A stretch of 64,000 bases of DNA from Candidatus Woesearchaeota archaeon (GCA_043818175.1 JBDRGA010000016.1:14003-78002), one strand, 5' to 3'; shown: positions 9,720-64,000, numbered from the stretch's first letter. Numbers and translations: made by a program. The notes: generated by a model from the letters alone, not told the origin.

Positions 9720-9721
9720 TA

Positions 9722-10102
9722 TTACCTCACGCTGAGTGCGGCGCTGCTCTTGGTTGCGCCCACTCCTGGTGCGTTATGTCTAACATGACTTCTCGTCAAG
9801 ACGAGTTCTCCAAAGTACAAGCCGAGCATGTCTTCAGTAATTGTAACGGGAACGAATATCTTGCCATTGTGAATGCTGACTGTCTTGCCAACCATGGACG
9901 GGAATACCAACATATCCCTGCGATGGGTTTTCGCTGAACCTTTCTGCTCTATTTTTGCCAGGAGCTTCTTGTGTTCAGCGGATAGGCCTCTTGCAATCTT
10001 CCTGCGTTGCCTTGAAGGATATAATTCTGCCAACTCTTTCATTGAGAGTGCCTGCAGCTCCTCGAGCGTCTTTCCTCTGTACGTGAATATTTTCTTTGCC
10101 AT
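9722..10102 (-). CDS. rps19: 30S ribosomal protein uS19
   Basis: 126 aa; S19 signature (GKTVSIHNGKIFVPVTITEDMLGLYFGEL). Confidence 0.9.
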   Translation of the reverse strand: MAKKIFTYRGKTLEELQALSMKELAELYPSRQRRKIARGLSAEHKKLLAKIEQKGSAKTHRRDMLVFPSMVGKTVSIHNGKIFVPVTITEDMLGLYFGELVLTRSHVRHNAPGVGATKSSAALSVR

Positions 10103-23400: not shown

Positions 23401-24213
23401 TTACGAAGTTGCCTTCATATTGTCCCAAGTGGTCTCAAACATGGACTTCAGGGCCTGGCCAAAGGACGGTGTCGTTGCCCAGATTCCAGCATCATATGAT
23501 GGATGTACGTTTTCATCGTGCAAAAACATGAACGCCACTTGTTTGTCGTCAACAATGCAGAATCTCGCCTTCTGATCTTTTTGAGTTCGAACTTCGGCCA
23601 CGGCCTTCAAAGACTCGATTGCTCTCTTTGTCTTTGCTGTTAGGGGGGCAGATATTCTTATTGATACGCCCCTGTCCTTTGCTTTCTTGAAGGACAGCAT
23701 CAACTGCTCGCTCTTCTTTACTATACCTTCTTCGCTCGTTACAAGAATTATTGAATGCTTTGCTTCGTTGATCATATACTCCAAATGGTCTGTGAGGCTG
23801 TCCCTTCCTTTTATGGATCCTGCCATATCTGAAGGATTAATCATTTCAATGCCTTGAGAATGAAGAATGGAAAGTTCAGTAAGGACTTCAGAACCTTTTA
23901 TTTCATCCATCATTTGGATATGTGTTTCTGAATCCTCTTTTATGCGCTTCTTGACACGTTCAAGAACCTCGTTTGGTTGAATGGCAAGGTACTTTATGGG
24001 TTTTCCAACCTTCATCATGATGAAGCCCTTCTTTTCGAGGGACTCAAGAACATCGTAGCTTCTGCTTCTGGGAACATTTGCTATGTCGCTTAGCTCGCCA
24101 GCAGTGCTTACGCCACGGCTGAGCAAAGCTGCCCAGATCTTTGCTTCGTAGCTGTTAAGCCCGAAATCCTTCAGTTTCTTGAGGAATCTTTCATTCACGA
24201 CCATTATCGTCAC
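23401..24213 (-). CDS. TrmB family transcriptional regulator
   Basis: N-terminal wHTH (LGLNSYEAKIWAALLSRGVSTAGELSDIANVPRSRSYDVLESLEKKGF), a coiled-coil and a C-terminal effector domain. Confidence 0.8.
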   Translation of the reverse strand: MTIMVVNERFLKKLKDFGLNSYEAKIWAALLSRGVSTAGELSDIANVPRSRSYDVLESLEKKGFIMMKVGKPIKYLAIQPNEVLERVKKRIKEDSETHIQMMDEIKGSEVLTELSILHSQGIEMINPSDMAGSIKGRDSLTDHLEYMINEAKHSIILVTSEEGIVKKSEQLMLSFKKAKDRGVSIRISAPLTAKTKRAIESLKAVAEVRTQKDQKARFCIVDDKQVAFMFLHDENVHPSYDAGIWATTPSFGQALKSMFETTWDNMKATS

Positions 24214-24565
24214 CTGTTAATGGGAATGTTTGTTGTATATATAAGCGTTTCGACATTTGACTATTGAGTAGTGATTACAAATTGTGGATGTTATGTGACC
24301 CTCCTGTTGCACTTGGAAACGCGAAAATCAAAATAAACGAACTTTTTCGAATGATGTTTATATATAATATATAATATATTTCAATATTGAAAAATAATAA
24401 TAAGAGTTCTCATTTCTGATATTAAACAAGAAAACAGTCGCAAGCCATATAAGAAAGTTCCATAGGAAATGAAGGGGTGTCTCTTCATCACTCGAAACCA
24501 ACAATTCCCTTACTTATATTCTCGTAGCGCAATCCTTAAATAGGGGTGTGTTTCGAGTGCAACGT
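24214..24565. other. Putative replication origin (oriC): ORB element, AT-rich unwinding region and inverted repeats upstream of orc1/cdc6
   Basis: A full ORB-like box GTTCCATAGGAAATGAAGGGGTG lies at ~24457-24479. A ~70-bp >85% AT stretch at 24355-24420 contains the palindrome TTTCAATATTGAAA. Inverted repeats GTTGCACTTGGAAAC (24306-24320) and GTTTCGAGTGCAAC (24550-24563) flank it. The layout matches the Pyrococcus cdc6-polD origin. Confidence 0.55.
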
Positions 24566-36659: not shown

Positions 36660-39600
36660 TCACATCTTACTAATCTTTCCAGGCTTGGGATGATAGATAT
36701 CTCCCTTCCTGGTTAGCTTTTCTAAGATTTCTTCTGCCTTGTCCTGGTTGATGCTCTGGTTCAGGGCTTCCTGGATAACGTCTTCCGTCTCAATTACCTT
36801 GCCGTACGTTTCAGTCAGTTGATTAATAATCTCCTTGATTTGGTGAATCTGATTACGTTCAGAAGCAGGAATACCTCCAGTGAAACGGTCAATGTCAATC
36901 TTTCCCGTTTGAGGGTCCATTCCAATCTGTTGCAAGCAGTAATGAACCAGTTCAATCGCTCTTCGGGAGTCCTTCCTTCTAATTACAGTGTCCAATCTTG
37001 TTTTAGCTGAAGCTTCACTCAAACGAACAAGCGCTTCCAACTGACGAGCAGAAATCGGTACTGCTTTAACACCACCCTCGCCTCCACCAGAAGCACGCAT
37101 TTCAACGAAGTATCTTTGGATCTCTTCCTTGGCTTCATCGCTTAGAATGGGCTTGCAGCGTATCCTAGCATAACTCACGTACTTCTTGTAGAATTCAGTC
37201 TTCAGTTCAACCGTGTCAAGAGCGTGCTCATCCTGATGCAGGTCTAGGATGAAACTAGCCATCTGCTCGTCCTTGAACTTATCGGGCATGTCTTTCACTG
37301 CAAAGATTAGGTCAAAGCGATTAATCAACGTAGAAGGCAGTTCAATCTGTTTTCCAACCATCTCGTAGGGGTCAAAACGCCCGAATTTTGGGTTTGCAGC
37401 TGCGAGAACAGTTGTTTCAGCCCTCAATGTTGCCTGAATGTTCGCTTTAGAAATAGAAATAGTCTGCTGTTCCAAAGCTTCGTGCAAAGCACTAGTATCT
37501 TCTTTAGTCATCTTATCTAGTTCGTCAATACAACAGATGCCTTTGTTCGTTAAAGGCAAGGCTCCAGCTTCCAAAGCCCAACCACGAAGGAAATCATCTT
37601 TCACAACCGAAGCAGTATTGTGAACCAAAACACCGTCAACGATGAAATTATGCGAATCCTCCACAGTTAAGTCATACACAAAGTCAAACTTTGACTTCTT
37701 CAATTCAACAGATTTCACCTTTTCCCAGAACACATCGCTGTTTGCCAGCGCGAGAAGCTCGACGTCTTCTATTTGATTCTCAAGTACAATTCTCTGCAAC
37801 GCTTCTTTGCTCAGATTGGGATGCCATCCTGCCTTTTTGAGTGGAATCTTTCTAGATTGGAGAATCTCCTTCAACCGCTCAGAAACGCCAGGAACAACAT
37901 CAATGTTTGTATTGTGCTTGGTTTTTGAAATTAATGCCAGTTTTGCCTTCTTTTTGGGGTGGCGTAATGGAATCTCTTTTGCAAATGTCTCGATGTCCTT
38001 ACCTCTTATTGATAGAACCCATTTGTCCAGTTTTCCCTGAATCTTCGAATTAACACTCGGGCTTCTGGGTCTTAATCGTGCATGCACGCCATATCTTAGG
38101 AATGCAAGCTGAAGCTGCCGTGCGAGTTTCTCTGAACAAGTCGTGAACTCGATGCACGAGCTATTATGTCCTTTACTGACGTAAACAGATCCATCTGCGT
38201 CATATAGTCCTGCGATGTATGAAGCAAGAAGTTTATTTGAAAGGTGAAGGAGTGTATTGGACATAAATATTGAAGACGATTTGGGGCTTAGTGAAATTCC
38301 GAGAGACATAAGAATCTCTCCAACAATCTTTGATGCAACTCTGCTTGCCTGTGGTCTGGTATCTGATTCTGGTTGAGTATCACATGAAAGTTGGAATTCC
38401 TTCTCAAACAAGTTTCTGAATGTGTCAAGAATGGTTGGTTCGCCGTTTGACAACCTAATGGCTATTGAATCTCCTGGAGTTTTTCTCATGTCGCCGTCGC
38501 CTGCGATGAGCCCTGCAACATGGAGAAATTCTTTTGAGAGATTGATGGGCACTTTGTGCTTCTTCCCGTTCCAGAGACTCACTGTCTGTACTCTGTGTTT
38601 CCAAGGAATCCTCGCAGCTTCAGCAAGGAGTCTCAGGTCATTAAGCTTGATGGTCCCTCTGGTTTCTGGATTCACCCAATGATGATATAGTTGGTTCTCG
38701 TTTATGCAAAGCGCGTTGGCTGCCTTTCTCACAGAACCGTATATTTCTTTCAGAATCTCAACAGATTCCTTGACCAAATCCTCAACGCCGCGCACAACAG
38801 GATTGCTCGCAATAAGGTCAACTGGGCTTTGCTCATTGACTGTGCCTCCAATTAGTTTTCTGGGTGTTCCGACAAAAGTGCCAGTTGTTATCTCAGAACT
38901 CTTAGTCCAAGACGGCTTACCACCATTTAGTACGAAGAGTTTCGTATTTGCAGTAAGTTGAACCCGTTTTCCGCTATCAAGCGTTACCTCATACATGAAT
39001 TCAGGAGCCTCAAGACGCCATATTGCAGAGGGATGCTTAGAATGTAACTTCATGTCTTTAGATAAAGACTGTATTTTGACATCTGTCACGTTATCTCTTT
39101 TCCACACACCTGATCTGAACTCAAGAGGAAATTCCATTCTTGATTCAACAACCTCTTGGATTGTTTCACATCCTCCTGGATTTGTAAGAACCATGCTTTC
39201 AGGGCTCACGCACAATCCAGCACCGGACGCACCTTTACCAGAAACAAACCTTGATTTAGGCGCAACTTTAGCAATTCTCCTCAACAATTGTGATTTTCCC
39301 GAACCAGGGTCTCCAATGAGCAGAATATGTATGTCTCCTCTCCTAACTACACCATCGGTCATGCTCTTTCTCACACCACCAAACAATTGCAATAACAGCG
39401 CTTCCTTGATTTTATCGTGACCGTAAATGCTTGGAGCTAAACTACCAATCAATGATTCGTAAACATCAGGCCTTTTGGCGAAATCCTCTATTCCAGCCAG
39501 TTCTTCAGGAGAAATAGCCATCTCAGAGAAATCTTCAAGCACTGGTTCTACAAAATTTGCTTCGCACATCAAATCAAAGCGAGTGCTCTGTCCGCCTTGT

Positions 39601-40295
39601 TGCAAGGTAATTGGAACCTCTTTTACGATTCCAACAACCTTTATCTTTGCACCAGGATTGGTTCTTTTCTCTGTTATTGGAGAGACAAGATCGTTCTTCA
39701 GGAAGATGTTGAACCTTTTAGGTTGCTCTCCGCCTTCTAATTCGTCAGGAGACTCTTCTAAAGTAATCTTCTGCGCATCGACCAGTTCCTTACCAATCAA
39801 ACGGAACTTACCTTTTCTACCACAACCACATCTTGTTGGCTCCTTGAATTTAGTATCGAGCTGTAGCACCGCAATAATATTGCCACAGGAAGGGCATTCA
39901 AAACGAGCAGCCGTTACTTGAGGCCGGACATCTGTCTTCTGCTTTACGATACCCTGCATCTCGAGAAATTTGCCAATATGTCTGGAACGAATATCTCTGA
40001 TCATAATCTGCTGACTTTCAGGAAGGTCCTTGAATCGTATCTGGAAGTTCTTTACTTCTCCAGCAAGATCAAACCGGTCAACGGCAGCAGAAGCAGCAGC
40101 CAGTACTTCTTCAGGGTCTTCGAGCAGCAGGTCAGCTAGTTCAGGATTGAACTTCGCGAGCTCTCCAAGCTCCACAACGAGAAACTTATGCCCCTTCGAG
40201 GCCTGTTTTACCAGGTCTGCGTAATGATGTTCCTCGAGGAACTTGTGGAAAAGCTCAATCTGCTTGGCTGCATCGATTGTTTGAGCTTCCTGCAT
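36660..40295 (-). CDS. mcm: MCM replicative helicase interrupted by one large intein
   Basis: N-terminal Zn motif CPSCGN...CGCG, Walker A GDPGSGKSQ, Walker B CCIDELDKM, sensor and arginine-finger regions, and a C-terminal wH. It is 1211 aa, of which ~679 aa is extein. Confidence 0.88.
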   Translation of the reverse strand: MQEAQTIDAAKQIELFHKFLEEHHYADLVKQASKGHKFLVVELGELAKFNPELADLLLEDPEEVLAAASAAVDRFDLAGEVKNFQIRFKDLPESQQIMIRDIRSRHIGKFLEMQGIVKQKTDVRPQVTAARFECPSCGNIIAVLQLDTKFKEPTRCGCGRKGKFRLIGKELVDAQKITLEESPDELEGGEQPKRFNIFLKNDLVSPITEKRTNPGAKIKVVGIVKEVPITLQQGGQSTRFDLMCEANFVEPVLEDFSEMAISPEELAGIEDFAKRPDVYESLIGSLAPSIYGHDKIKEALLLQLFGGVRKSMTDGVVRRGDIHILLIGDPGSGKSQLLRRIAKVAPKSRFVSGKGASGAGLCVSPESMVLTNPGGCETIQEVVESRMEFPLEFRSGVWKRDNVTDVKIQSLSKDMKLHSKHPSAIWRLEAPEFMYEVTLDSGKRVQLTANTKLFVLNGGKPSWTKSSEITTGTFVGTPRKLIGGTVNEQSPVDLIASNPVVRGVEDLVKESVEILKEIYGSVRKAANALCINENQLYHHWVNPETRGTIKLNDLRLLAEAARIPWKHRVQTVSLWNGKKHKVPINLSKEFLHVAGLIAGDGDMRKTPGDSIAIRLSNGEPTILDTFRNLFEKEFQLSCDTQPESDTRPQASRVASKIVGEILMSLGISLSPKSSSIFMSNTLLHLSNKLLASYIAGLYDADGSVYVSKGHNSSCIEFTTCSEKLARQLQLAFLRYGVHARLRPRSPSVNSKIQGKLDKWVLSIRGKDIETFAKEIPLRHPKKKAKLALISKTKHNTNIDVVPGVSERLKEILQSRKIPLKKAGWHPNLSKEALQRIVLENQIEDVELLALANSDVFWEKVKSVELKKSKFDFVYDLTVEDSHNFIVDGVLVHNTASVVKDDFLRGWALEAGALPLTNKGICCIDELDKMTKEDTSALHEALEQQTISISKANIQATLRAETTVLAAANPKFGRFDPYEMVGKQIELPSTLINRFDLIFAVKDMPDKFKDEQMASFILDLHQDEHALDTVELKTEFYKKYVSYARIRCKPILSDEAKEEIQRYFVEMRASGGGEGGVKAVPISARQLEALVRLSEASAKTRLDTVIRRKDSRRAIELVHYCLQQIGMDPQTGKIDIDRFTGGIPASERNQIHQIKEIINQLTETYGKVIETEDVIQEALNQSINQDKAEEILEKLTRKGDIYHPKPGKISKM
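37617..39212 (-). mobile_element. MCM intein (~532 aa) with a LAGLIDADG homing-endonuclease domain
   Basis: Inserted after SGKGASGAGL. It begins CVSPESMVL and ends GVLVHN, with T as the +1 extein residue. Two LAGLIDADG blocks are present (VAGLIAGDGDM and LASYIAGLYDADGSV). Coordinates are derived by residue counting, +/- a few nt. Confidence 0.8.
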
Positions 40296-42029: not shown

Positions 42030-42043
42030 TTTCAATATTGAAA
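42030..42043. promoter_or_regulatory. Perfect 14-bp palindrome TTTCAATATTGAAA (copy 2 of 3)
   Basis: An exact self-complementary 14-mer in the NYN / small-ORF divergent intergenic region. The AT-rich flanks are conserved with the other copies. Confidence 0.5.
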
Positions 42044-46811: not shown

Positions 46812-48284
46812 TCACAACGGTTCAACAGATTGAGGGAGGGTCTTCACGAAATTCAGGCGCTCTTCTCTGTTTATCTTGTCGCTCTTGAACATATAACGGC
46901 TCCTGCAATACCTGCAGCACGGTTCATTGTTCATTTTGAAGAATTTTGGGGGTATGTCCTCTTCCACAACACGAGAAATGCAGTTCTGGTTCTGGCACAG
47001 AAGATAGACAAACTTCTTCGTGATTGTTCCTTTGTTGATGTAATTTATTGTTGTCTCGGGCGATATCAAGGCCGCCCGTTTCAAGTCACGATCAGTCAAC
47101 GATGGAAGGTCCGTCTTCAATATGTTTGTGCTCTTTTGGGGAATGTGTGCAAATATGGCCAGCTTCCCTCGCTCCTTGAGCTTCAGTTGCATTCCGATTT
47201 CTAGTTCAAGTCCCTTTGCTATGTGGTCAATTACAACACCATCTTTTATGTCATTTATTATCCCTGGTTCTCTGTTCTTTGAACCATGTCTGAGCAGAAT
47301 GTTGTTTCCATTTTCCAACAAAGGATTCAGGATGCCTGAGAATTGAACAATTTCGGCGTCTTTGAACATACTGTAAAGAAGCGCTTTCCTCAGAAATATG
47401 CCATTCTCCGCCTGCTTGAAGAATCCCTGTGCATCGCTGAAGTAAACAGCATGGTCAATTTCTGCCAGTTCGCTGTTGACAGGCAAAGGATGCAAAACCT
47501 TTCCCTTGAATTCACGAACCCGTTCAAGTGTGATCCTGTACTTGTCCATTAAATCATGGACTTGAGAGGCAGAACTACCCATTCTCTCCAATTGAGGTCG
47601 GGTCATGTAGAAAACATCAACGTTCTTCATAACATCAACAACTTCAGCATGTCGAACGACTTTTACGCCTTTCTTAGCAAGGTGCTCTGTAAGTGAAGTG
47701 GGCATTCCAAGAAAATCCTCAGCACACCAATGAATCTCAACGTTATCATAATTGGCTAAAGCTAATGTCTGGGAATGTATAGTTCTTCCATGCGCTAGAT
47801 CACCTCCATAACCCACTTTTATTCCATCGAGCTTTTCTCTCAAAGTGCTCATCGTGAAAAGGTCAAGCAATGCCTGCGTGGGGTGCTCGTTCTTTCCATC
47901 GCCCCCATTAATAACAGGAATCTCAGAAACGTCAGCAGCCCACTGAACACTTCCATCTTTAGGATGTCGCATCACGATAGCGTCAGCATGATTGGCCTCA
48001 AACATCTTTATCGTATCTCTTATGCTTTCCTTCTTCGTTACGGACGTGCCCTCAATACCGCTGAAACCACCTGCTCTTCCACCAAGCTCTACAATTGCAG
48101 TTATGAAACTCTGCCTTGTCCTTGTGCTTGGCTCGTAGAAAAGGTTTGCAAGCCGGAAAGTGCGAGGAAGCTGTAGTGAATACCTCTTGCCAGATTCCTC
48201 AATTTGCTTCATCTTCCCGGCCAACGCGAGAAGCTTGTTGATTTCGTCCTTCGAGAAGTCCTGAATGGAAATTACATCCCCCAT
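46812..48284 (-). CDS. pyrBI: Aspartate carbamoyltransferase with fused catalytic (PyrB) and regulatory (PyrI) chains
   Basis: N-terminal ~310 aa carry STRTR, HPTQ and HPLP ATCase motifs. The C-terminal ~150 aa match PyrI (GVVIDHI..., zinc site CQNQNC...CCRYC). Confidence 0.8.
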   Translation of the reverse strand: MGDVISIQDFSKDEINKLLALAGKMKQIEESGKRYSLQLPRTFRLANLFYEPSTRTRQSFITAIVELGGRAGGFSGIEGTSVTKKESIRDTIKMFEANHADAIVMRHPKDGSVQWAADVSEIPVINGGDGKNEHPTQALLDLFTMSTLREKLDGIKVGYGGDLAHGRTIHSQTLALANYDNVEIHWCAEDFLGMPTSLTEHLAKKGVKVVRHAEVVDVMKNVDVFYMTRPQLERMGSSASQVHDLMDKYRITLERVREFKGKVLHPLPVNSELAEIDHAVYFSDAQGFFKQAENGIFLRKALLYSMFKDAEIVQFSGILNPLLENGNNILLRHGSKNREPGIINDIKDGVVIDHIAKGLELEIGMQLKLKERGKLAIFAHIPQKSTNILKTDLPSLTDRDLKRAALISPETTINYINKGTITKKFVYLLCQNQNCISRVVEEDIPPKFFKMNNEPCCRYCRSRYMFKSDKINREERLNFVKTLPQSVEPL

Positions 48285-54227: not shown

Positions 54228-55127
54228 ATGATTGTCAAGAAGATAATTCCTTTGTTTCTGGTCTTAGTTTTGACTACTTTTGCAAATGCAGCAACCCTCT
54301 CAGACTTTCCCTCAATCTTTGTGGAGAAAGGCTGGGAATTACAGGCTAACTTCGTTGTTGGGGAAAGGGCTTCCAGCAGCGATGTACTTCTTGGTGTTGA
54401 TCTGGCAACAAGGCTTTCACAATGGGTAAGTCAGGAAAATGAAAACAGACCTCTTGACAACCAGATGGAATATGACCGCAAGGGAATAAGCAAGACTGCG
54501 GACATGGACGACCTTGGTGATAATTATTTTGCAATCGGACTTCCATGTAAGAACAAGATTGTTTCTAAGTTGTTGAATACCACCAGTTGTTCAGCATTCA
54601 AAACAGGAGATGGTTATCTCGCACTGTTCATTTCAAACGAAACCAAGATTATTGTGATAACCGGAGGGGATTATGCTGGAATGGAAAAGGCGAAGAATGT
54701 GCTTTACAATTTTGAAGAATATAACTTGAACAGCGAAAATATTTTGATACGAGAATCAAACCCGTATGTGCTAATTGACATGAAATTCAAGTCTACAAAT
54801 GAAACAGAAGACATAGTTCTTAATGAAACAGACGAGACAAGCGTAAGCGAGGATTCACAAATAAAGAAAGAGGGATGCTCTGGCTGTCTTGTTTCAGGTG
54901 TTTGTTATTCGATTGGAAGCATATCAAACGGTACGTACTGCAGTTCTGCAGGTGACTTTGAACCGCAGATTGGTGAAGGTGAAGCGTGCGGTTCGAGTTA
55001 TCAATGTACCATTCCTTTAATGTGCATACAGAATGTATGTGAGAAACCTGAAGCGCCGGAAATGAAGAGCGAAGGTTTCTTCCAAGCAATTGCGAACTTC
55101 TTCAAGCGATTATTTGGGAAGAGTTAA
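54228..55127 (+). CDS. Secreted protein with a Cys-rich C-terminal module
   Basis: Signal peptide (IIPLFLVLVLTTFANA); C-terminal CSGCLVSGVCYS...CSS...CGSSYQC...CIQNVC. Confidence 0.5.
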   Translation: MIVKKIIPLFLVLVLTTFANAATLSDFPSIFVEKGWELQANFVVGERASSSDVLLGVDLATRLSQWVSQENENRPLDNQMEYDRKGISKTADMDDLGDNYFAIGLPCKNKIVSKLLNTTSCSAFKTGDGYLALFISNETKIIVITGGDYAGMEKAKNVLYNFEEYNLNSENILIRESNPYVLIDMKFKSTNETEDIVLNETDETSVSEDSQIKKEGCSGCLVSGVCYSIGSISNGTYCSSAGDFEPQIGEGEACGSSYQCTIPLMCIQNVCEKPEAPEMKSEGFFQAIANFFKRLFGKS

Positions 55128-55581: not shown

Positions 55582-56145
55582 ATGTTCATAGACATATGCT
55601 TTCCATCTGGGAATGAAGAAGAGTTCTTGAAAACAGCGAAAGCTTTGGGCACTGGGAAGTTGTTGTTTGTCTACAAAGAAATGCCTTCCCATTCAAAAGG
55701 AATCAAAGCAGCACTCTTCAACACGAAAGCAGCAAGACAGAAACCTTCGCTTGTTTTGGCTTCTGGAGCTAGGAACGTGTTCGAGCATCCTTCAGTTAAT
55801 CTTGTTTACGGACAGGAGAAATTAGGAGTTAAAGATACGGTGAGGCAACCAGACTCAGGAATGAATGAAGTGCTTGCTCGAATTTTAGCCAGGAAAGATA
55901 AAGCATATGGAATTGCTATTAGTGATTTGATTGAGAATCCTGCATTGATAAGAAGGTTCAAACAGAACATCATTATTTGTCAAAAAGCAAAAACACCAAT
56001 TGTGCTGGCGAGTTTTGCCAAGAAGCCAGAACAAATGAGAAAAGCAAGCGATCTGGAAGCTCTTGGTTCGTACATTGGAATCGCACAGCCGAAGAAAGCG
56101 ACAGAAGCACTTTCTAACTTTCTTCTAAAACACGGCTCTGAATAA
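55582..56145 (+). CDS. rnp3: RNase P protein component 3 (Rpp30 homolog)
   Basis: 187 aa collinear with archaeal Rpp30 TIM-barrels; the C-terminal RFKQNIIICQKAKTPIVLASFAKKPEQMRKASDLEALGSYIGI resembles the Rpp30 C-terminus. Confidence 0.5.
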   Translation: MFIDICFPSGNEEEFLKTAKALGTGKLLFVYKEMPSHSKGIKAALFNTKAARQKPSLVLASGARNVFEHPSVNLVYGQEKLGVKDTVRQPDSGMNEVLARILARKDKAYGIAISDLIENPALIRRFKQNIIICQKAKTPIVLASFAKKPEQMRKASDLEALGSYIGIAQPKKATEALSNFLLKHGSE

Positions 56146-56719
56146 TCCTTAGAGGCATGAACGTTGGAATTTCAACATAGCTGAGGTTCCACGTCTTCAA
56201 GTAATCTTTTACCTCTTGAAGATTTTCTTTTCCCACACCCAGAACTTGGTCTGCAACCTTGATTAGTTTGAATCGTTGTACCATTCCCTTGTCTGTTTTT
56301 GTTCTGCCATTCAAACTGTAGTAAAAGCGTACTCTATTGGATTTTGAAAGACCTTCCAACGAGTACTTGAACAGTATTATTTCCTGGAAACCAAGTCCTT
56401 CTGCAATTCCTCCCTTCCTAATTAATGAGTAGCCTTCAAGGAACGCTTCCCTTGCGATGAAACTGGGCTCGAACAACGAGAAATATGTTCTTGAGGTTAC
56501 TTCAACATTCCAGTCTGACATTGTTTTCTTTAATTCGTAATTCAAGTTTAAGTCGTCCTGGTCTTTGTAGATTACTAGAATATCAACGTCTTTAGGTGAT
56601 TCTTTTCCCTTTAGGATTGAGCCGAATAACAATATGTCTACAATTCTGCTGTAGTGCTCTCTGTAGAACTTATTTACCTTCGAGAGGAATACTGTATTCT
56701 TGTACAAGGGCACTGACAC
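56114..56719 (-). CDS. Minimal nucleotidyltransferase (MNT-type) with a C-terminal extension
   Basis: LLFGSILKGKESPKDVDILVIY matches the GSx9-13Dx[DE] NTase signature. Confidence 0.65.
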   Translation of the reverse strand: MSVPLYKNTVFLSKVNKFYREHYSRIVDILLFGSILKGKESPKDVDILVIYKDQDDLNLNYELKKTMSDWNVEVTSRTYFSLFEPSFIAREAFLEGYSLIRKGGIAEGLGFQEIILFKYSLEGLSKSNRVRFYYSLNGRTKTDKGMVQRFKLIKVADQVLGVGKENLQEVKDYLKTWNLSYVEIPTFMPLRIIQSRVLEES

Positions 56720-57014
56720 TCTTTCTCACCTCGTCGGTTGTTTCTTTGCTGATTTCTGTTGTGTACGTAGTCCTGTACGTGGGGAAGAGTTTGTCGAGGA
56801 TTCTGTAAAGGTTTGGGTACTTCTTCTCGCAGATTCTGAAACGGTCGCCATGGTCATGTGGGATTCTTCCTTCGTTCTGCAGTATTACATAATCAATCGC
56901 CATGAACAACGCCTTGAAATAAAGAATTGCTGCAGACGTGTAATCCTTCATCGCGTAAACAGCTTTCGCTGAATCAAGAATGCGTTTCATGTTCTTCGCG
57001 AGGGCACGTTCCAT
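56670..57014 (-). CDS. HEPN-domain protein (partner of the downstream nucleotidyltransferase)
   Basis: A 114-aa helical protein with an Rx4H (RIPHDH) motif. It overlaps the NTase gene by 50 nt in the classic HEPN/MNT arrangement. Confidence 0.5.
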   Translation of the reverse strand: MERALAKNMKRILDSAKAVYAMKDYTSAAILYFKALFMAIDYVILQNEGRIPHDHGDRFRICEKKYPNLYRILDKLFPTYRTTYTTEISKETTDEVRKSVSALVQEYSIPLEGK

Positions 57015-57142
57015 GTTATGTTTGCTAATGGAACTCGTGGTTTATATGGTTTTTGTTGGTTGAGCTAACTTGTTGGTTGGGATAATGTGGGTGGTTTATT
57101 TGGTCTATCTGGTTATTCGTGCTAACTGGAGGTTTATGTTGT

Positions 57143-57156
57143 TTTCAATATTGAAA
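57143..57156. promoter_or_regulatory. Perfect 14-bp palindrome TTTCAATATTGAAA (copy 3 of 3)
   Basis: Lies ~90 bp upstream of the giant surface-protein gene. It is preceded by a 100-bp stretch of degenerate GGTT(T/G)AT / GCTAAC direct repeats. Confidence 0.5.
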
Positions 57157-57246
57157 TCTATTATTGTGTTCGAATCAACGCAGGTCGACAAAAACGCGGA
57201 CTCCATAACAAACTATTTAAACACATAATCGGCGAAGCAGTCTATA

Positions 57247-60200
57247 ATGCGGGTCGGAGTCATCATTCCAGTACTGTTCTTGCTTCTTGTGGTTGTCTCA
57301 AGCGAGACACTTGCTGTTACTCCACCAGTTACGGCAGGAACGCCAAGTTATCCGTATGGGGCAGATGCGTGGAATGTCGCAACCCGTGGCGACAAGACAT
57401 CCAATCCAACAATATATTACGCTGGCGAAACCGTGAACGTTGGCAGTTTTCCGTTCAGCCGTTTGAGTGGTAGCGCAGATCAGTACTCGAGTATTCTTAC
57501 TAAAATAAACGATTATTCTACCATTGCAGGGGCGTGCTCACACAATTCAGAAAATGCAGAACAGTCAACAGACAGTAATGAGGGTGACTGTGCCAGAACA
57601 GGAGATAAATACCGCGAATTCTTTTGGCAAACTGAGGTATTCATCCCAGCACATGTAAAAAAAATTCGCCTCGTTGCGTGGGTTGACAATGATGCTGCAG
57701 TGTACATTGCACCATACACGCGGACAGGAAACACGTACAACTTTGACTTGTTGGACTTCAAACCTACAAGTAGTAAATCCATATTTTATTCTCCTGGAAA
57801 CGGGGGGAACATCGATGTTTCAAATTCAAAATATGGGAAAGGGCTTATACTTTGGGGTGGGTCATCGTGTCGGAGTGTAGCGTTTGGTTACGCTTTTTTT
57901 TGTAAGCCCGACACACCAACACATGCAGATTTAGTTCAGGGAGCCGACTTTCAACCAGGATGGAATGTGCTTGGAATTTGGTACAGGGACCATGAAGGGG
58001 GTGACCACCTAACAATCAAGATGCTTGACCCAGATAAGCCGGAGCCGGAAACAAGCGACATGCTCCTTGAAGGAATAAAGCTCAGAACAGACATGCCACT
58101 CATCTCATACCGAAGTGTATTCTCGGCAATAAGTACAAATTCCCTCGCGGACACAGTACCAGCCAAACACCAGAATGATGGTCGCTCGGTCAATTATATT
58201 TCACTCAGGCAGGCTATGGGTACTCGTGAAGGAGATATTTCTGGTGGGTGCTGGGACGGTATTGACAACGATGGAAACTGGATGGCTCCTAAAGACTTGA
58301 TAGATTCAGAAGGCAGAAATTATCCTGACGGAATAATTCAAGCAGCAGAACTGAAGGATCCAGTTACTGGAAGTTATTTGAATGATGATCATAAATTGCA
58401 GACGACAGAGTACACATACAATGGAACAATAATAAACAGACCACCAGTATATTACGACACAGAATACAAGACGCCGTCCGAAGGCAACTTACAGCCAAAC
58501 ATCGGAGAATACGGCGTTGACTGTTTGGACAAGAGTTGTGATGGTAAACCAGGACCGGGTGGCGTAACATGCAATTGGGCTGACCAGTCTTTATCTTATC
58601 CGACAGAATCAGATTGCACTGACGGCGAAGACAATGACTTCGATGGCAAAATAGACCTTCTCGACGAGGACTGCTTGAACGCGCAGTGTGGTATCCCTCC
58701 AGGCACAACAATCTCTCAAATAATTGACTCTTTGAATTCAGCAGAAGACACGTATGATGCTGGAGCATTAGATGGAAGTGACGCCTGCTGTGGGGATGAT
58801 TTGCCTGAGCTTGGATGTGCTTCTCCTGAGGGTCAGTGTTCTGGCACACTGAATGATTGTAGAGGAACACCTGTGGATGATTTTTCGAGGGTGTGTGCTT
58901 CTAAGAACGGGCCAGACTGTAATGCAGACTACAGGTGTGCTTGGGATGGTGACTATTGCTGGGAAGCGGGATGTTCCGACTTGTCTGTGGACGCGTGTAA
59001 AAAACTAGACGGGTGTTCTTTGAAAACGTGCAGTGATTATAATCATTCGACGTGTCTTAGTCCACAATGCTCATGGGAAGAAACATGTCCTGCAGGCACA
59101 CCTCAAACGTATACGACGCTTGGTGACCTCGGCTACATCACCCCCGACGGAAGGTACTTCTGTGGAAAGGACAGCAAAGATGGTGCCATAACATATGACG
59201 GCACTGGCTCTTGGAAATGGTGGGACGCGCAAGCTATGGGTTCTCCCTTCACGATACACGAAGTGAAACCAGAAACAGACGTAGCGAGCAATGGAGAAGC
59301 GTGGTATTATTGCACTGCGCCAGAGTTTGCCACAGACACAGAGCAAAAGGTTGAGAAATGGGCCATCTTGCCAGAACCAAGTTTTGTAACTGGAATTGTA
59401 TTTGGCCAGTATCAGCAGTGGCCCGATAGGTGCACAATCAACGAAACAACAAAGAAGTGCATACTAAACAGCGAACCCGATGGGTTTGCCGACTGTGATA
59501 TAAACAAGAACACCCAAATCGATCCAGGCGAGGACTGGAGATCGTTTGCGAGCGTATATGCTGGTGTTTATCCTCCTATTACCACAGGGTCATTGTATTG
59601 TTCTGATGGCATCGAGGGTTTTATGACTTTGTGCGACGCAATCAATCCAGAAAAGGGCAACTACCCTTGGCTTGCAAACATAGAGAAATGGAAGGATGCA
59701 GCACTCGAATGTGATAAAACTGAAACGTCAGTACAAAAATGTCCAGATGCCGGAACAAGCGACGCAACAGTTCCAAAACGAGGATGGCGTCCAGATTTCA
59801 ATCCAGGATGCACGCCGGAAAACACAGTATTCGCAGATGGAACTTCAGGTTGTGCAGACGGAATAGATAATGACTTTGATAATCTTGTAGACTGCAATGA
59901 CCGTCTGTGTGATGGGCTGCTGGGTCCAGATGGGCAGATCTGTGAGTTCCAAGGTGAGCTTAATTGTCAGGACAAACAGGATGATGACGGGGACACATTA
60001 ATAGACTGTTCAGACCCTGACTGTATATTCGAAGCGAGTTGCAGGTATGAATCACCAAAAGTAGCGCCACATTACCAGGCATTGCTTTGCTTGCAAGGCA
60101 ACAATCCAGAATATCCACAATTCCAGGAATGCTGTGGTGCGTCTGCTTGCTCAAATACAGACGCAATTCTTCTTGGAGCCGCAAAATTGTACGGACCTGG

Positions 60201-61740
60201 TACGACCGCTGAAGTGGCAATGGACTTTAACGAACTCGTAAACAGCGCGATTTTGGATAAAATTCGACCGATACGAACTACAAACAGCATTCCAATTCAG
60301 AGAATTGTCAGTGCAGGCGACACACTTGAATTTGACTACATAACAAACAATCCCGCGGGAAGCATCACGCTCACAGGAACAGCAAGCGGGACATATTCTC
60401 TCTGGGAAAATACCGTAAACAAACCAGCCAATTTCGGAATCATCACAGGATATTGGTGGCATGTGCGAATACCAATGGATACTTCTGGTGAGATATTGAG
60501 TGTCAAGTTCACAGCTCCGGCATACGTTGACAACATACAAATCGTTCCTGGTGATGCAGAAGGCGAACAAAGATATTGCTCGTACGGTGGTTCGTGGAAC
60601 ACAAGTCTTGTTGACCCAGCAACCTGCAACAGTGTTGTTGCTCTGGGATACGGAAGTTATGGTTGGACGGGAACAATGTGTTGTGGTGACAATACAAATG
60701 AAGAGTACTACAAAGACAGTAACGCAGGATGCTTTGCCCGAAACACAATATATGCAGGCCAGAGAGTTGGAGATGTCTTACACAACACGTCTTTGAATAA
60801 CCTGCTTTATTATGATGGAAAGTTCTGGGCGTGCGTTGAAAATGTCTCTGGTTTAAGCAGGGCCGTTGTGGGTGCAATAACCACTACTGAATCAAGGAAA
60901 ACTCCAAGCTTCACAATAAAATCCCAGTGGTACTGCGATCCGGACCACACTTGGAAAGTGCTGAAGGACCTGAAAGTTGAGAATGTCCTTGCAGGAAAAC
61001 TGGCAGACATGGGTGACGAGTCAGGAAAGTCATACACGCTCTTCTGTGACGATGAGCAAAGAAGCATTAACAACGTCGAATCAGTTAATCCCAGCACGCA
61101 AGGAGCATTCTGTGTGCTCACCGGACCCGAGACAGAAAATCAGAAAGAAGTGTTTGTTGGCTTCGTGCTTGACCGAAAAGCAGGCGCGAACATAAACGAT
61201 TACCTTACCTCTTTACAGGAGAACTATGTTCCAGAGTGGCAGGATGATGAATCTGAAATGATACCTGCAGATTACTGTGATGATGTAACAAATCCAAACG
61301 TAAACGAATTCTTCGAAGCATGCACGAATGGCGGAGTGAAGAACTACAAGGTCTACTATAACAAGGCATTTGGCATAGTCATAATTGGAAGAGAACCAGC
61401 ATCAACTAATTGGGCTGATTCCATGTGGCGAGCCGTCAGAAATTTCTTCAGGAATATATTCGGGTACGTTCCACCATCACTGGGACGCCCCGTGCTGCCC
61501 AGCGAGATACCGTCTCAATTCGAAAAACTATACTTACACGTACAAGATGGCAAGAGCATAGTGGGTGCGTATTACAATAATGCATTCCTTGTTAACTATA
61601 CTAACTATGATGGCACGGCAGTCCGCAGACTTGCTTCAGCCAATGGACTCACATACGATCCATCAAGCAACACGATATACTCAAAGCCAGGGGACTTGAA
61701 AGCATGGCAACAAGTAACTTCCGCACTGAGGCCGCGCTGA
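57247..61740 (+). CDS. Giant secreted Cys/Asp-rich surface protein (1497 aa) with CxDGxDNDxDxxxDxxDxDC repeats
   Basis: Signal peptide (VIIPVLFLLLVVVSSETLA). At least four copies of an acidic Cys-bracketed module are present: GGCWDGIDNDGNWM, CTDGEDNDFDGKIDLLDEDC, CADGIDNDFDNLVDCNDRLC and CQDKQDDDGDTLIDCSDPDC. Many additional Cys are present. Confidence 0.7.
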   Translation: MRVGVIIPVLFLLLVVVSSETLAVTPPVTAGTPSYPYGADAWNVATRGDKTSNPTIYYAGETVNVGSFPFSRLSGSADQYSSILTKINDYSTIAGACSHNSENAEQSTDSNEGDCARTGDKYREFFWQTEVFIPAHVKKIRLVAWVDNDAAVYIAPYTRTGNTYNFDLLDFKPTSSKSIFYSPGNGGNIDVSNSKYGKGLILWGGSSCRSVAFGYAFFCKPDTPTHADLVQGADFQPGWNVLGIWYRDHEGGDHLTIKMLDPDKPEPETSDMLLEGIKLRTDMPLISYRSVFSAISTNSLADTVPAKHQNDGRSVNYISLRQAMGTREGDISGGCWDGIDNDGNWMAPKDLIDSEGRNYPDGIIQAAELKDPVTGSYLNDDHKLQTTEYTYNGTIINRPPVYYDTEYKTPSEGNLQPNIGEYGVDCLDKSCDGKPGPGGVTCNWADQSLSYPTESDCTDGEDNDFDGKIDLLDEDCLNAQCGIPPGTTISQIIDSLNSAEDTYDAGALDGSDACCGDDLPELGCASPEGQCSGTLNDCRGTPVDDFSRVCASKNGPDCNADYRCAWDGDYCWEAGCSDLSVDACKKLDGCSLKTCSDYNHSTCLSPQCSWEETCPAGTPQTYTTLGDLGYITPDGRYFCGKDSKDGAITYDGTGSWKWWDAQAMGSPFTIHEVKPETDVASNGEAWYYCTAPEFATDTEQKVEKWAILPEPSFVTGIVFGQYQQWPDRCTINETTKKCILNSEPDGFADCDINKNTQIDPGEDWRSFASVYAGVYPPITTGSLYCSDGIEGFMTLCDAINPEKGNYPWLANIEKWKDAALECDKTETSVQKCPDAGTSDATVPKRGWRPDFNPGCTPENTVFADGTSGCADGIDNDFDNLVDCNDRLCDGLLGPDGQICEFQGELNCQDKQDDDGDTLIDCSDPDCIFEASCRYESPKVAPHYQALLCLQGNNPEYPQFQECCGASACSNTDAILLGAAKLYGPGTTAEVAMDFNELVNSAILDKIRPIRTTNSIPIQRIVSAGDTLEFDYITNNPAGSITLTGTASGTYSLWENTVNKPANFGIITGYWWHVRIPMDTSGEILSVKFTAPAYVDNIQIVPGDAEGEQRYCSYGGSWNTSLVDPATCNSVVALGYGSYGWTGTMCCGDNTNEEYYKDSNAGCFARNTIYAGQRVGDVLHNTSLNNLLYYDGKFWACVENVSGLSRAVVGAITTTESRKTPSFTIKSQWYCDPDHTWKVLKDLKVENVLAGKLADMGDESGKSYTLFCDDEQRSINNVESVNPSTQGAFCVLTGPETENQKEVFVGFVLDRKAGANINDYLTSLQENYVPEWQDDESEMIPADYCDDVTNPNVNEFFEACTNGGVKNYKVYYNKAFGIVIIGREPASTNWADSMWRAVRNFFRNIFGYVPPSLGRPVLPSEIPSQFEKLYLHVQDGKSIVGAYYNNAFLVNYTNYDGTAVRRLASANGLTYDPSSNTIYSKPGDLKAWQQVTSALRPR

Positions 61741-61775
61741 AATCTTTAAATAATCAAGTATGGCATAGACTAATA

Positions 61776-64000
61776 ATGCAACGCCGCGCGCAACTAACAC
61801 TTTTGCTTCTCGTAGGAATCATGCTGGTTCTTGCCTTCGGCTTCGTTCTGTATCTTAGAGGAATAATCGTTGAAGAAAGAATCAATGCACAGGCAGACAA
61901 AGCAATTCAGGGGTACTTACAAGCAGCTTCGGCATCAACATATGTATCAAGCTGCGTGACAAGAATAAGCGATGAAGCAATATACATGCTGGGAAGACAA
62001 GGAGGAGTAATATACAAGTCCCAGAACGGAACCATAGACCAGCAGACAAGAACATATGTTCCATTCGATGAAGCGGGAAAGCAATGGAACGTTACATACT
62101 CCCTGAGCAGATACGTCAACGATAATTGCGCAGTAACAAACCCACCAGAGTATCCTTATCCTGAAACACCAGTGAACAGACTGCTGGTTCCATTCACCCA
62201 GAGATTGAACAGTGGCCAGTGTCCAATCCCGCCAGGACTGTCGTCAGGGCCGGTTGGAAATTATACACTGCAACCATTATGCGATCCACAAGGTAAGAAT
62301 GGTATTGGCGCATCCACGAGGAATACTTATTTATGTATCATATCCAGTTATGGGGAAGAAAGTATCCAACTGCAACTCGAGAAGTACATAGAAAACCAGC
62401 TACCCCTCTGCGTAAACTTCACCCTATTCCAAGATATCACAGGAAACACAATCAACGTCACAGGACTTCCAAACGTTTCGATAACCCTTGGCCAGGATGA
62501 TATGTTGATTCAATCAATCTACCCGTTCACAGTAAGCCTGCACGGAGGCGAACCAATAACTAGACTAGTAACATTCGATGTGTCAAGAGACATTCCATTA
62601 AAACGAATTCATGAAACACTGAGCTACCTTCTAACATTGGACGCCAAGAACCTACATTTCAGCCCGACCGCAAACGCTACCAGAATTGCAATCAGACCCT
62701 TGCCAGAAATTGAGAGGTATAGGGACGTATGCACTACTTGTGTTGCTGAAAGGCACGACGACATCCTGAACCTAACGGACACAACAAGCAAAGTAAAGGG
62801 AGAACCATTCACATTCCTTTCCGCAATACAAAACAGGGCGCCGGTACTTGATTATATACACTTCTCCGAAGGAAACCCAGTACCACAACATTATGACCTG
62901 GTAATCCTGGAAGGCCTCACAATAGAACTCAGCCCCGAGGGGTACGACCCTGATGAGGATAATGCAAACAACTCACAGTATCTCATGTCCAAGAATTATT
63001 CATACAAAGGATGGAAAGCAGAATACGAACAGGAAAACAGCATTCCTACAGAATGGATGTGGAATGGCGTGTGGCGTGGCGGCACAGTAATCGCGGCGGG
63101 AAGAAGTTTCAACATTTCTCTGCTGGCAGACCTGATACTTTTCCCGTACTCAAACATATCCTGCTATAAGGATGCCACTTACAATATTGGACCAACACCA
63201 CCCTGTTCTGATTTAAGAAACATATGGGAAAACAGCCAAAAATTCATGCTCACAAAAAGGGAAGCAACGTACACCACAGGACCACCAGACATTGGTCCAC
63301 ATGAGGTCAAAATAATAATAAGAGAGGACTCAGGCCTCCTTGACTACCAGTTGCTTCACATCCTTGTTGCAGATTTATGTGCCAACGGCAGACAGGTATA
63401 CACCGAATTTGCTGGAAAGGATGCAAGCGTTGAAGACCCATACCTGCTCGAAAGCTGCAGCGTAACTCCCATGCCTGGATGGGACTACCTTTGGAACAGC
63501 AGCAAGGAAGGAGAACTGGGAAGACTGCCAGTGCTTAACTTCGGCAAGGACATTATGAACCCCCTTGAAAGCCCTTTCACGAAAACAGGAATGCACACCA
63601 TAACCCTTTGGATAACAGCACAGGACGGCCAGGTAAGCAATACAAGCATTAACGTTGAAGTGAAGCAGTGCATTCCATTCAATAACGGGCCTGGAGGCAT
63701 TCCGTACCCATACTCCACAGAAAGCGACCCATTCTTAGCGGACCATGTTTGCTGTGAGAGCAATGGAAACTTGAGGAATAAAAACTTCGCTTGTTATTCT
63801 TTTGATGAGAACTGGTGTTATCCTTCAGACATAACGCTTTCAGAATTTCCACCTCTTGATGTTGCAGTTAAAGAAGACCCACTTATTGAAAAGAAGATTT
63901 TGGATGCCGCCTCATCAGACTATCGAGGAACAAGCAAGTTTGAAGATGACGGTATAGAATTAACTCCCGGAAGAGCACTGCAAAACGACATCTTCAACCG
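61776..64000 (+). CDS. Second large membrane-anchored/secreted surface protein, 3' truncated by the window end
   Basis: The ATG at 61776 is followed by a TM/signal segment (LTLLLLVGIMLVLAFGFVLYL). An open frame of >740 codons with no stop runs to position 64000; it is absent from the ORF track only because it has no in-window stop. Asn/Thr/Cys-rich ectodomain. Confidence 0.6.
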   Translation, partial: MQRRAQLTLLLLVGIMLVLAFGFVLYLRGIIVEERINAQADKAIQGYLQAASASTYVSSCVTRISDEAIYMLGRQGGVIYKSQNGTIDQQTRTYVPFDEAGKQWNVTYSLSRYVNDNCAVTNPPEYPYPETPVNRLLVPFTQRLNSGQCPIPPGLSSGPVGNYTLQPLCDPQGKNGIGASTRNTYLCIISSYGEESIQLQLEKYIENQLPLCVNFTLFQDITGNTINVTGLPNVSITLGQDDMLIQSIYPFTVSLHGGEPITRLVTFDVSRDIPLKRIHETLSYLLTLDAKNLHFSPTANATRIAIRPLPEIERYRDVCTTCVAERHDDILNLTDTTSKVKGEPFTFLSAIQNRAPVLDYIHFSEGNPVPQHYDLVILEGLTIELSPEGYDPDEDNANNSQYLMSKNYSYKGWKAEYEQENSIPTEWMWNGVWRGGTVIAAGRSFNISLLADLILFPYSNISCYKDATYNIGPTPPCSDLRNIWENSQKFMLTKREATYTTGPPDIGPHEVKIIIREDSGLLDYQLLHILVADLCANGRQVYTEFAGKDASVEDPYLLESCSVTPMPGWDYLWNSSKEGELGRLPVLNFGKDIMNPLESPFTKTGMHTITLWITAQDGQVSNTSINVEVKQCIPFNNGPGGIPYPYSTESDPFLADHVCCESNGNLRNKNFACYSFDENWCYPSDITLSEFPPLDVAVKEDPLIEKKILDAASSDYRGTSKFEDDGIELTPGRALQNDIFN

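Follow-up and report, generated by a model that had tools for sequence, protein, structure and literature searches.

Introduction

Large adhesin-like proteins recur in the type IV filament loci of archaea (PMC4858521; bioRxiv 10.64898/2026.04.22.720090), and bacteria have modular pilins that carry adhesive modules, PilB of S. sanguinis being one example (PMC8179133). Here we describe two adjacent genes for giant proteins, ORF1 and ORF2 (open reading frames 1 and 2), which lie at the 3′ end of a stretch of 64,000 nucleotides (nt) from a Candidatus Woesearchaeota archaeon (GCA_043818175.1, JBDRGA010000016.1:14003-78002; hereafter the window, with all positions counted from its first letter) and which head a conserved cell-surface gene cluster of Woesearchaeota/Nanoarchaeota-type genomes. 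Little is known of how DPANN archaea recognise and attach to their hosts, and the majority of their surface proteins lack an annotation. The initial annotation of the window, made from its sequence alone, had singled out acidic, cysteine-bracketed modules in ORF1 and had seen in the two proteins a pair of secreted adhesins. Its observations are mostly right and its interpretation is right in part; more interesting than the modules is the cluster itself, a conserved, pilin-like set of genes with a large and uncharacterised partner family, which has apparently not been described so far.

A conserved gene cluster headed by ORF1 and ORF2

The two genes are laid out as follows:

57247–61740, + strand: ORF1, 1497 amino acids (aa), Sec-exported, Cys-rich, Asp-rich and multidomain
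61776–64000, + strand: ORF2, partial, 741 codons, open at the window end

Both frames are as first annotated, that is, a protein of 1497 aa with a hydrophobic, signal-peptide-like N-terminus, followed by a frame that is still open beyond 740 codons. A gap of 35 nt separates the stop codon of ORF1 from the ATG of ORF2, whose position at 61776 was set by comparison with homologues. The sequence of ORF1 is identical to that of the hypothetical protein ABIA93_02740 of a Candidatus Woesearchaeota metagenome-assembled genome (MAG) at NCBI, on a contig of 103 kb, in agreement with the DPANN origin that had been proposed for the window.

For comparison, we fetched 55 related loci from Woesearchaeota/Nanoarchaeota-type MAGs and metagenome contigs; the source names of the assembly records are Woesearchaeota, Nanoarchaeota or Nanobdellota. 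In their usual order, these loci start with RNase P p30 or a ribosomal protein operon and continue with a large, Cys-rich protein with a Sec signal (ORF1-like), an ORF2-like gene, one or two Cys-rich giants of 1200–2800 aa and, at the end, four to six small proteins of ∼80–380 aa, all of which have class III N-termini of the form K/R-[GAS]-Q. The large upstream protein is homologous to ORF1 only over aa ∼1105–1497, the C-terminal domain (C-domain) of the latter, as found by BLASTP and local profile iteration. Of the 40 non-redundant loci that have at least 3 kb of upstream sequence, 33 have a gene with this domain among the three genes that precede the ORF2-family gene, and the ORF1-like and ORF2-like frames are often 2–12 nt apart or overlapping (e.g., L019, L026 and L027). 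Further downstream, at least 28 of the 38 loci with 1.5 kb or more on that side have a Cys-rich giant right after the ORF2-family gene, and the small class III genes are present in 12 of 22 loci with at least 8.5 kb; in most of the remaining 10, the flank stops inside the giant gene. What had been annotated as no more than two adjacent adhesins is a conserved gene pair with which a pilin-like cluster begins, and the second member of the pair carries a pilin-type signal.

The cluster varies in its details. In one subclade (L002, L003, L005, L039, L043 and L050, at ∼9040–9970 in each), a Memo-family gene (PF01875, ∼290 aa, without a signal peptide) stands between the ORF1-like and ORF2-like genes, and its product is 79% identical between L002 and L003, where the flanking surface proteins are ∼50% identical. 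The downstream Cys-rich giants (e.g., L012 11254–19572, L001 13260–20039 and L004 4478–7015) carry bacterial thrombospondin type 3 (TSP3) repeats (PF18884, E=5.8e-14), immunoglobulin (Ig)-like domains and a "cysteine-rich acidic repeat" (TIGR02232), and sometimes also the module motif C.D..D[ND]D that is found in ORF1; since these giants carry such repeats too, acidic modules of the Ca2+ type are scattered among the proteins of the cluster. In L007 and L008, the ORF2-like gene is directly followed by separate pyrB-like and pyrI-like genes. As to the records themselves, L035 is the same contig as L003, and the MAGs behind L032, L034, L035, L038, L040–L042, L045, L046, L052 and L054 are titled "uncultured Methanosarcinales archaeon", a title that, on MAGs bearing this cluster, is probably wrong or a placeholder.

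Each of the two genes in the window is preceded by a TATA-like box:

57214–57221, + strand: TATA-like box TATTTAAA, ∼29 nt upstream of the ORF1 ATG, read from the sequence
61745–61752, + strand: TATA-like box TTTAAATA, ∼27 nt upstream of the ORF2 ATG, in the intergenic gap

Because these boxes lie 27–29 nt before both start codons, the genes would be transcribed from separate promoters into leaderless or short-leader transcripts. Such independence would be expected if ORF1 and ORF2 were, essentially as in the initial annotation, two giant secreted adhesins that happen to be neighbours and are functionally linked neither to each other nor to pili, and it would also agree with the lack of an upstream ORF1-like gene in the closest ORF2 relatives and with the lineage-specific character of the acidic modules and N-terminal region of ORF1. 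We nevertheless regard this explanation as unlikely: the pairing is kept in those 33 of 40 loci among proteins that are just 20–30% identical, in frames that often overlap or nearly abut, and a conserved pilin-type N-terminus such as that of ORF2 is foreign to ordinary secreted adhesins.

ORF2, a giant protein with a predicted pilin-type N-terminus

The features of ORF2 that matter here are:

61776–61856, + strand: class III signal of ORF2, leader MQRRA, predicted cleavage before Gln6
61782–61997, + strand: predicted long N-terminal α-helix of ORF2 (aa 3–74), like α1 of pilins, from AlphaFold2
62946–62960, + strand: DPDED motif of ORF2 (aa 391–395), in a β-sandwich domain

The N-terminus of ORF2, MQRRA|QLTLLLLVGIMLVLAFGFVLYL (QLTLLLLVG...), consists of a basic leader of five residues, a Gln and 22 hydrophobic residues, and fits the pattern [KR][GA][ALIFQMVED][ILMVTAS] followed by a hydrophobic stretch. 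A short leader with a [KR][GAS]|Q junction is what we take to be an archaeal class III (type IV pilin) signal in its Gln+1 variant (FlaFind rule, Class_IIIsignal description), and cleavage of ORF2 by a prepilin peptidase is predicted to occur before Gln6. The initial annotation had listed both proteins as secreted; the N-terminus of ORF2 is of the class III, pilin type and not a classical secretion signal. We found 19 homologues, all 24–27% identical to ORF2 and, where the source is named, all from Woesearchaeota; genome and metagenome scans gave only relatives of up to 31% identity, and sequence and profile searches of the PDB with the family gave no significant match. Even at this divergence the junction is kept in 17/17 aligned homologues, and in the family alignment (17 sequences, mean column identity of 27%) Gln6 is invariant and Gly14 nearly so.

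In the AlphaFold2 model of ORF2, which has a mean predicted local distance difference test score (pLDDT) of 63, with blocks mostly at 67–94 over aa 1–110, the helix over aa 3–74 is followed by strands at 94–111 and then by several β-sandwich domains. Right behind the helix lies the motif QGGVIY (aa 75–80), whose QGG is invariant. A Foldseek search of the PDB with this model returned the tandem Ig-like adhesin SiiE, protocadherins, an RTX adhesin and GhpA hook-protein fragments (93 hits at E<=0.001, the best at E 1e-6 to 1e-5); the E-values are significant, and the TM-scores on the query are low, at 0.10–0.17, as a chain of several domains would lead one to expect. In line with these predicted Ig- and cadherin-like folds, which suit the adhesin-like role that had been proposed, residues D391, P392 and D393 of the DPDED motif are invariant in the homologue alignment, and the motif would form a cadherin-like Ca2+ site.

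Full-length homologues of ORF2 are ∼1000–1270 aa long and have a Cys-rich C-terminus; ORF2 itself just enters its Cys-rich region (HVCCES...) at the window end. The family comes in a short form of ∼420–590 aa that is low in Cys (L007, L008, L009, L012, L019 and L026) and in a long form of ∼1000–1270 aa with a Cys-rich C-terminal extension (L001–L005, L030 and L031). Of the short-form loci, L007–L009 have neither the giant nor the pilin-like genes downstream.

ORF1 and the family of its C-terminal domain

ORF1 is made up of the following regions, apart from its acidic modules:

57247–57315, + strand: signal peptide of ORF1 (aa 1–23), MRVGVIIPVLFLLLVVVSSETLA, followed by VTPP
57316–58236, + strand: orphan N-terminal region of ORF1 (aa 24–330), with no relatives detectable
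58852–59406, + strand: Cys-rich stalk and Trp-rich region of ORF1 (aa 536–720)
60559–61737, + strand: conserved, family-defining C-terminal domain of ORF1 (aa 1105–1497), ending in ...AWQQVTSALRPR

The N-terminal segment MRVGVIIPVLFLLLVVVSSETLA is the single hydrophobic one in the whole protein, which points to a Sec-type signal peptide and a mature protein without a membrane anchor; by the −3/−1 rule, the signal peptide is predicted to be cut after TLA. ORF1 contains 60 Cys (4.0%), clustered at aa 400–1000 and again at 1100–1300, together with 9.0% Asp and 8.9% Gly, so that the "hundreds of additional Cys" reported for it at first are far too many. A word-index homology search with full-length ORF1 returned ORF1 itself only, and homologues emerged through synteny and profiles. 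Likewise, whole ORF1 (E<=0.1), whole ORF2 and eight segments of ORF1 (E<=10) gave nothing in Pfam but a non-significant match to Collagen_bind_2 (E=0.096), in the N-terminal region of ORF1. For this region, aa 24–330, there were no homologues in Pfam, in the PDB or among the related loci; a PA14-like identity of aa 25–330 was considered and is unsupported, Pfam having given no such match. The stalk at aa 536–720 is common only to the closest ORF1-like proteins, those of L002 and L005, as found by an iterative hidden Markov model search of the loci.

The picture is different for the C-terminal domain. A profile built from the C-terminal 398 aa of ORF1 and 12 database homologues, run exhaustively with HMMER against 1.84 billion representative proteins, collected a family of 1188 clusters (at 50% identity) at E<=1e-3, of which 814 remain at E<=1e-30. 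Its members are 352–2798 aa long; in roughly nine out of ten of the best 150, the domain lies at the very C-terminus, and many members consist of a signal peptide and the domain alone. A hydrophobic N-terminus is present in 124 of the 141 members that start with Met; among 156 family sequences, the median Cys content is 4.1%, the motif W..L[TS]..LR ends 96, and just 7 carry at least one strict acidic module. Because the modules are so rare in the family, we consider them, together with the orphan N-terminal 300 aa and the Cys-rich stalk, to be lineage-specific additions of ORF1 to a conserved core, and this extension takes up its first ∼1100 aa. Neither Pfam nor NCBIfam has a model for the family, sequence and profile searches of the PDB found no relative of it, and the source names that we encountered were "hypothetical protein" throughout.

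DPANN archaea are host-dependent, and the surfaces of their hosts could be targets of large secreted proteins. One could accordingly picture ORF1 and ORF2 as enzymes or toxins, secreted to break down or pierce host envelopes or polymers, in which the Cys-rich and acidic parts serve as stabilisers only, and a match of the C-domain profile to a CdiA toxin fragment (E=0.063) would point the same way. That match, however, is not significant, searches of Pfam, NCBIfam and the PDB revealed no catalytic domain in ORF1, in ORF2 or in their families, and the folds that can be recognised are Ig- and cadherin-like, which makes this explanation very improbable.

The acidic modules of ORF1

The initial annotation counted at least four acidic modules in ORF1, and the motif C.D..D[ND]D is indeed found at four positions (aa 335, 457, 869 and 907), where 20,000 composition-preserving shuffles, done on ORF1 and on its Cys/Asp-rich centre, gave no more than two per shuffle. 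Only two of the four are complete:

58249–58305, + strand: acidic module 1 (aa 335–353), CWDGIDNDGNWMAPKDLID, a half-module with one Cys
58615–58689, + strand: acidic module 2 (aa 457–481), CTDGEDNDFDGKIDLLDEDCLNAQC, without the second Cys
59851–59943, + strand: acidic module 3 (aa 869–899), a complete four-Cys unit
59956–60042, + strand: acidic module 4 (aa 904–932), a complete four-Cys unit

By sequence, the modules are of an already known kind of repeat. ORF1 matches the NCBIfam model NF033662 (acid_disulf_rpt) in three stretches at E=1.2e-6 and 28.2 bits, a significant score that lies under the curated naming cut-off of 41 bits; the best stretch, aa 904–932, covers profile positions 4–32 of 32. 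The four Cys per unit of ∼32 aa that characterise this repeat are present in modules 3 and 4, which stand in tandem, and not in modules 1 and 2. Module 4 is the best match both to acid_disulf_rpt and to the C-rich domain of the teneurins, and aa 904–934 align with that of human teneurin-4 (PDB 7plp) at E=6.6e-4. In the teneurin domain, three Ca2+ ions are bound by eight acidic residues and Asn844, with thrombospondin type 3 geometry at two of the sites, and the six Cys pair up in three disulfides, 1–3, 2–5 and 4–6 (PMC9058538). Module 4 keeps counterparts of E835, D840, D843, N844, D845, D847, D851, D854 and D856 (teneurin numbering), that is, nine of nine ligand positions, with Asp in the place of Asn844; it matches four of the six Cys and has no equivalents of C858 and C869.

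With this pattern, the acidic modules of ORF1 probably bind Ca2+ and are stiffened by disulfides. The likeness to thrombospondin type 3 or excalibur-like calcium loops that had been suggested for them holds as a resemblance through teneurin and NF033662, and fails as direct membership: no match to TSP_3, TSP3_bac, Excalibur or MopE was found in Pfam with whole ORF1 (E<=0.1) or with the isolated modules (E<=10). A literature search found no paper on the acidic double-disulfide repeat.

A candidate adhesive structure and its alternatives

We read ORF1 and ORF2 as components of a type IV filament-associated adhesive structure, in which the modular, giant, pilin-like ORF2 is paired with ORF1, and we hold this reading with moderate confidence. 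From the frames, motifs, repeat and family matches and conserved synteny observed here, we infer the following course of processing, assembly, docking, Ca2+ binding and adhesion. ORF2 would be cut by a prepilin peptidase in the way of a pilin, and would then be held by its N-terminal helix, either in the membrane or at the tip or base of a type IV filament, together with the small pilin-like proteins. ORF1 would dock to this assembly via its conserved C-terminal domain and project its variable N-terminal region, stiffened by Ca2+ and disulfides, as a contact surface to a host cell or substrate. It is the combination of a constant C-domain, a hypervariable N-terminal extension and a tight linkage to pilin-like genes that suggests a docking domain bearing a variable, exposed part. 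The role in cell-cell interaction first proposed for the two proteins would be in keeping with such an arrangement.

This reading has its difficulties. Genes for an assembly ATPase, a platform protein or a prepilin peptidase did not turn up in the 64-kb window or in any of the 55 related loci, in a survey that consisted of Pfam scans of selected ORFs, N-termini and gene maps, with no dedicated HMM search; and no curated pilin or class III model of Pfam or NCBIfam matches ORF2, its homologue P0004 or the small proteins of the cluster. ORF2-like proteins are 5–10 times the size of ordinary pilins. The downstream pilin-like genes are known from the relatives, as the window itself ends inside ORF2, and three loci (L007, L008 and L009) have the gene pair alone, without such genes downstream, while the four closest ORF2 relatives (L010, L030, L031 and L032) have no ORF1-like gene upstream. 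As regards the first of these points, assembly genes that are encoded elsewhere are common for archaeal pilin loci (PMC4858521), and the ATPase and platform genes that would serve the ORF1/ORF2 cluster may be encoded elsewhere too.

The main rival is an envelope assembly that forms no filament. Pilin-type N-terminal helices also anchor proteins in membranes outside of filaments, as in the sugar-binding proteins of the Sulfolobus bindosome, and by analogy the helix-anchored class III proteins, ORF1 and the Cys-rich giants could form a wall, sheath or S-layer-associated lattice. Such a scaffold would explain why ATPase and platform genes were not seen in the cluster and why its neighbours are housekeeping genes (RNase P p30 and ribosomal protein operons); the occurrence in 52 non-redundant Woesearchaeota/Nanoarchaeota-type loci is as for a core envelope component, and a secreted, S-layer-like protein is encoded just upstream, at 54228–55127. 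Some Ig-rich proteins in clusters of the type IV filament superfamily (TFF) also resemble S-layer proteins (bioRxiv 10.64898/2026.04.22.720090). On the other hand, the set of several small pilin-like proteins and pilin-like proteins of ∼85 aa is characteristic of filament systems, with their minor and major pilins, and the extreme length variation of the N-terminal extensions in the ORF1 family suits exposed recognition better than a lattice. We consider a scaffold less likely than a filament-associated structure; it is the most serious of the competing explanations, and the observations made here accord with either.

Going a step beyond the filament-associated adhesive structure, we tentatively entertain the possibility that the ORF1/ORF2-family pair is the core of an undescribed surface apparatus of Woesearchaeota/Nanoarchaeota, with a pilin-like stalk of ∼1000 aa embedded in the membrane or in a filament, a partner docked to it through the conserved C-domain and, on that partner, a rapidly diversifying N-terminal "warhead" of 0 to ∼2400 aa that sets the host or surface for attachment; in ORF1, the warhead would bear the Ca2+-binding modules. 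Should the variable N-terminal extensions prove to determine host range, the family would serve as a practical marker with which host associations could be predicted from metagenomes. Short of this, the analysis ties two "hypothetical" giants to a gene cluster that recurs in Woesearchaeota/Nanoarchaeota-type genomes, gives a definition to a family of ∼1200 clusters that lacks a Pfam model, and offers a candidate anchoring principle, a pilin-type N-terminus on proteins of ∼1000 aa. It also offers parts that can be tested, namely the peptidase cleavage site, the predicted Ca2+-binding modules, and the docking domain paired with a variable domain.

The upstream region and the rest of the window

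The window is a piece of ordinary archaeal chromosome, with a ribosomal protein operon, PolD, Cdc6, an intein-containing MCM, TBP, Hef and RNase P p30 among its genes; tRNA and Rfam scans gave no match in it. Upstream of ORF1, the initial annotation had reported a palindrome and a degenerate direct-repeat tract, the first of which is present:

57143–57156, no strand: perfect palindrome of 14 bp, TTTCAATATTGAAA, between the divergently oriented HEPN gene (−) and ORF1 (+), a candidate operator

Exact copies of TTTCAATATTGAAA occur at 24379–24392, 42030–42043 and 57143–57156, all in divergent intergenic regions and with dissimilar flanking sequences, and account for three of the window's nine perfect palindromes of 14 bp. 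On either side of the copy at 24379 are a gene for a TrmB-family regulator (23401–24213, −) and cdc6/orc1 (24548, +), and TTTCAATATTGAAA is absent from the 29 related loci that were checked. A genome-specific operator is a reasonable guess from this distribution, possibly one at which the TrmB-family regulator acts. The adjoining tract, at 57030–57145, is G/T-rich and contains short, imperfect repeats of two or three copies, with GTGGTTTAT[A/T]TGGT and TTGTTGGTTG[A/G]G found twice each; a Tandem Repeats Finder score of 30 only (9 bp, 2.4 copies) gives no ground for treating it as a feature.

Between RNase P p30 and ORF1 lies a pair of overlapping ORFs for an MNT nucleotidyltransferase and a HEPN protein (56114–57014, −). 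Because the related loci have p30 followed directly by the ORF1-like gene, the pair looks like an insertion; MNT-HEPN in a housekeeping context has been listed as a DPANN-specific family (PMC6393860). The S-layer-like protein at 54228–55127 (+) has 299 aa, a signal peptide, a weak match to the S-layer outer domain (PF05124, E=9.7e-6) and a Cys-rich C-terminal part. Elsewhere in the window, the MCM helicase gene (36660–40295, −) is split by an intein with a LAGLIDADG homing-endonuclease domain, and the PyrB and PyrI domains of aspartate carbamoyltransferase are fused in one ORF of 490 aa (46812–48284, −).

Comparison with known systems

Two systems of DPANN archaea were considered and set apart. 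For these, the arCOG01314-associated putative secretion system and the NEQ255 family, the components described are a MoxR ATPase, a von Willebrand factor A (vWA) protein and multi-transmembrane, S-layer-like proteins, which were not seen here (PMC5898192, PMC6393860).

As for the acidic modules, their closest relative is NF033662, with which ORF1 shares Asp/Asn-rich units of ∼32 aa bracketed by four Cys; the difference is that ORF1, otherwise unrelated to this repeat, has two complete units only in its 1497 aa. With the C-rich domain of teneurin-4, and hence with TSP3, the likeness extends to all nine Ca2+-ligand positions in module 4, but four Cys instead of six leave two possible disulfides instead of three, and the module belongs to an archaeal protein that is otherwise unrelated and in which Ca2+ binding is a prediction. 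The SiiE and RTX adhesins resemble the central region of ORF2 in its modelled tandem arrangement of an Ig-like, Ca2+-repeat fold and in the conserved DPDxD motif; they differ in that TM-scores are low (0.10–0.17), sequence homology is lacking, and export is by a type I secretion system rather than through a pilin-type signal.

With regard to the cluster as a whole, systems 2, 4A/B and 4G of the 2026 TFF survey also have large, Ig-rich, Cys-containing proteins beside proteins with class III signals, for which adhesion or recognition has been proposed, but those loci are built around an ATPase and a platform gene, neither of which is near the ORF1/ORF2-type cluster; the survey mentions Woesearchaeota zero times (bioRxiv 10.64898/2026.04.22.720090). 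We also compared the cluster with PilB of S. sanguinis, with bacterial minor pilins and PilY1, and with the Epd cluster of M. maripaludis, which has large DUF2341 proteins (PMC8179133; PMC4858521). Here the ORF2-like proteins are far larger (∼1000–1270 aa), the cluster has no linked ATPase or platform gene, and the partner family, defined by the C-domain of ORF1, has no known relatives, ORF1 and the tested ORF1-like proteins having no Pfam match to PilY1 or DUF2341. What these systems share with the ORF1/ORF2-type cluster is a pilin-type N-terminus fused to large extracellular modules, several small pilin-like genes next to large, secreted, non-pilin proteins, and partners that bear Ca sites. 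By these likenesses, the minor-pilin/PilY1 tip complexes, S. sanguinis PilB and the large adhesin-like proteins of archaeal filament loci appear to be its nearest analogies.

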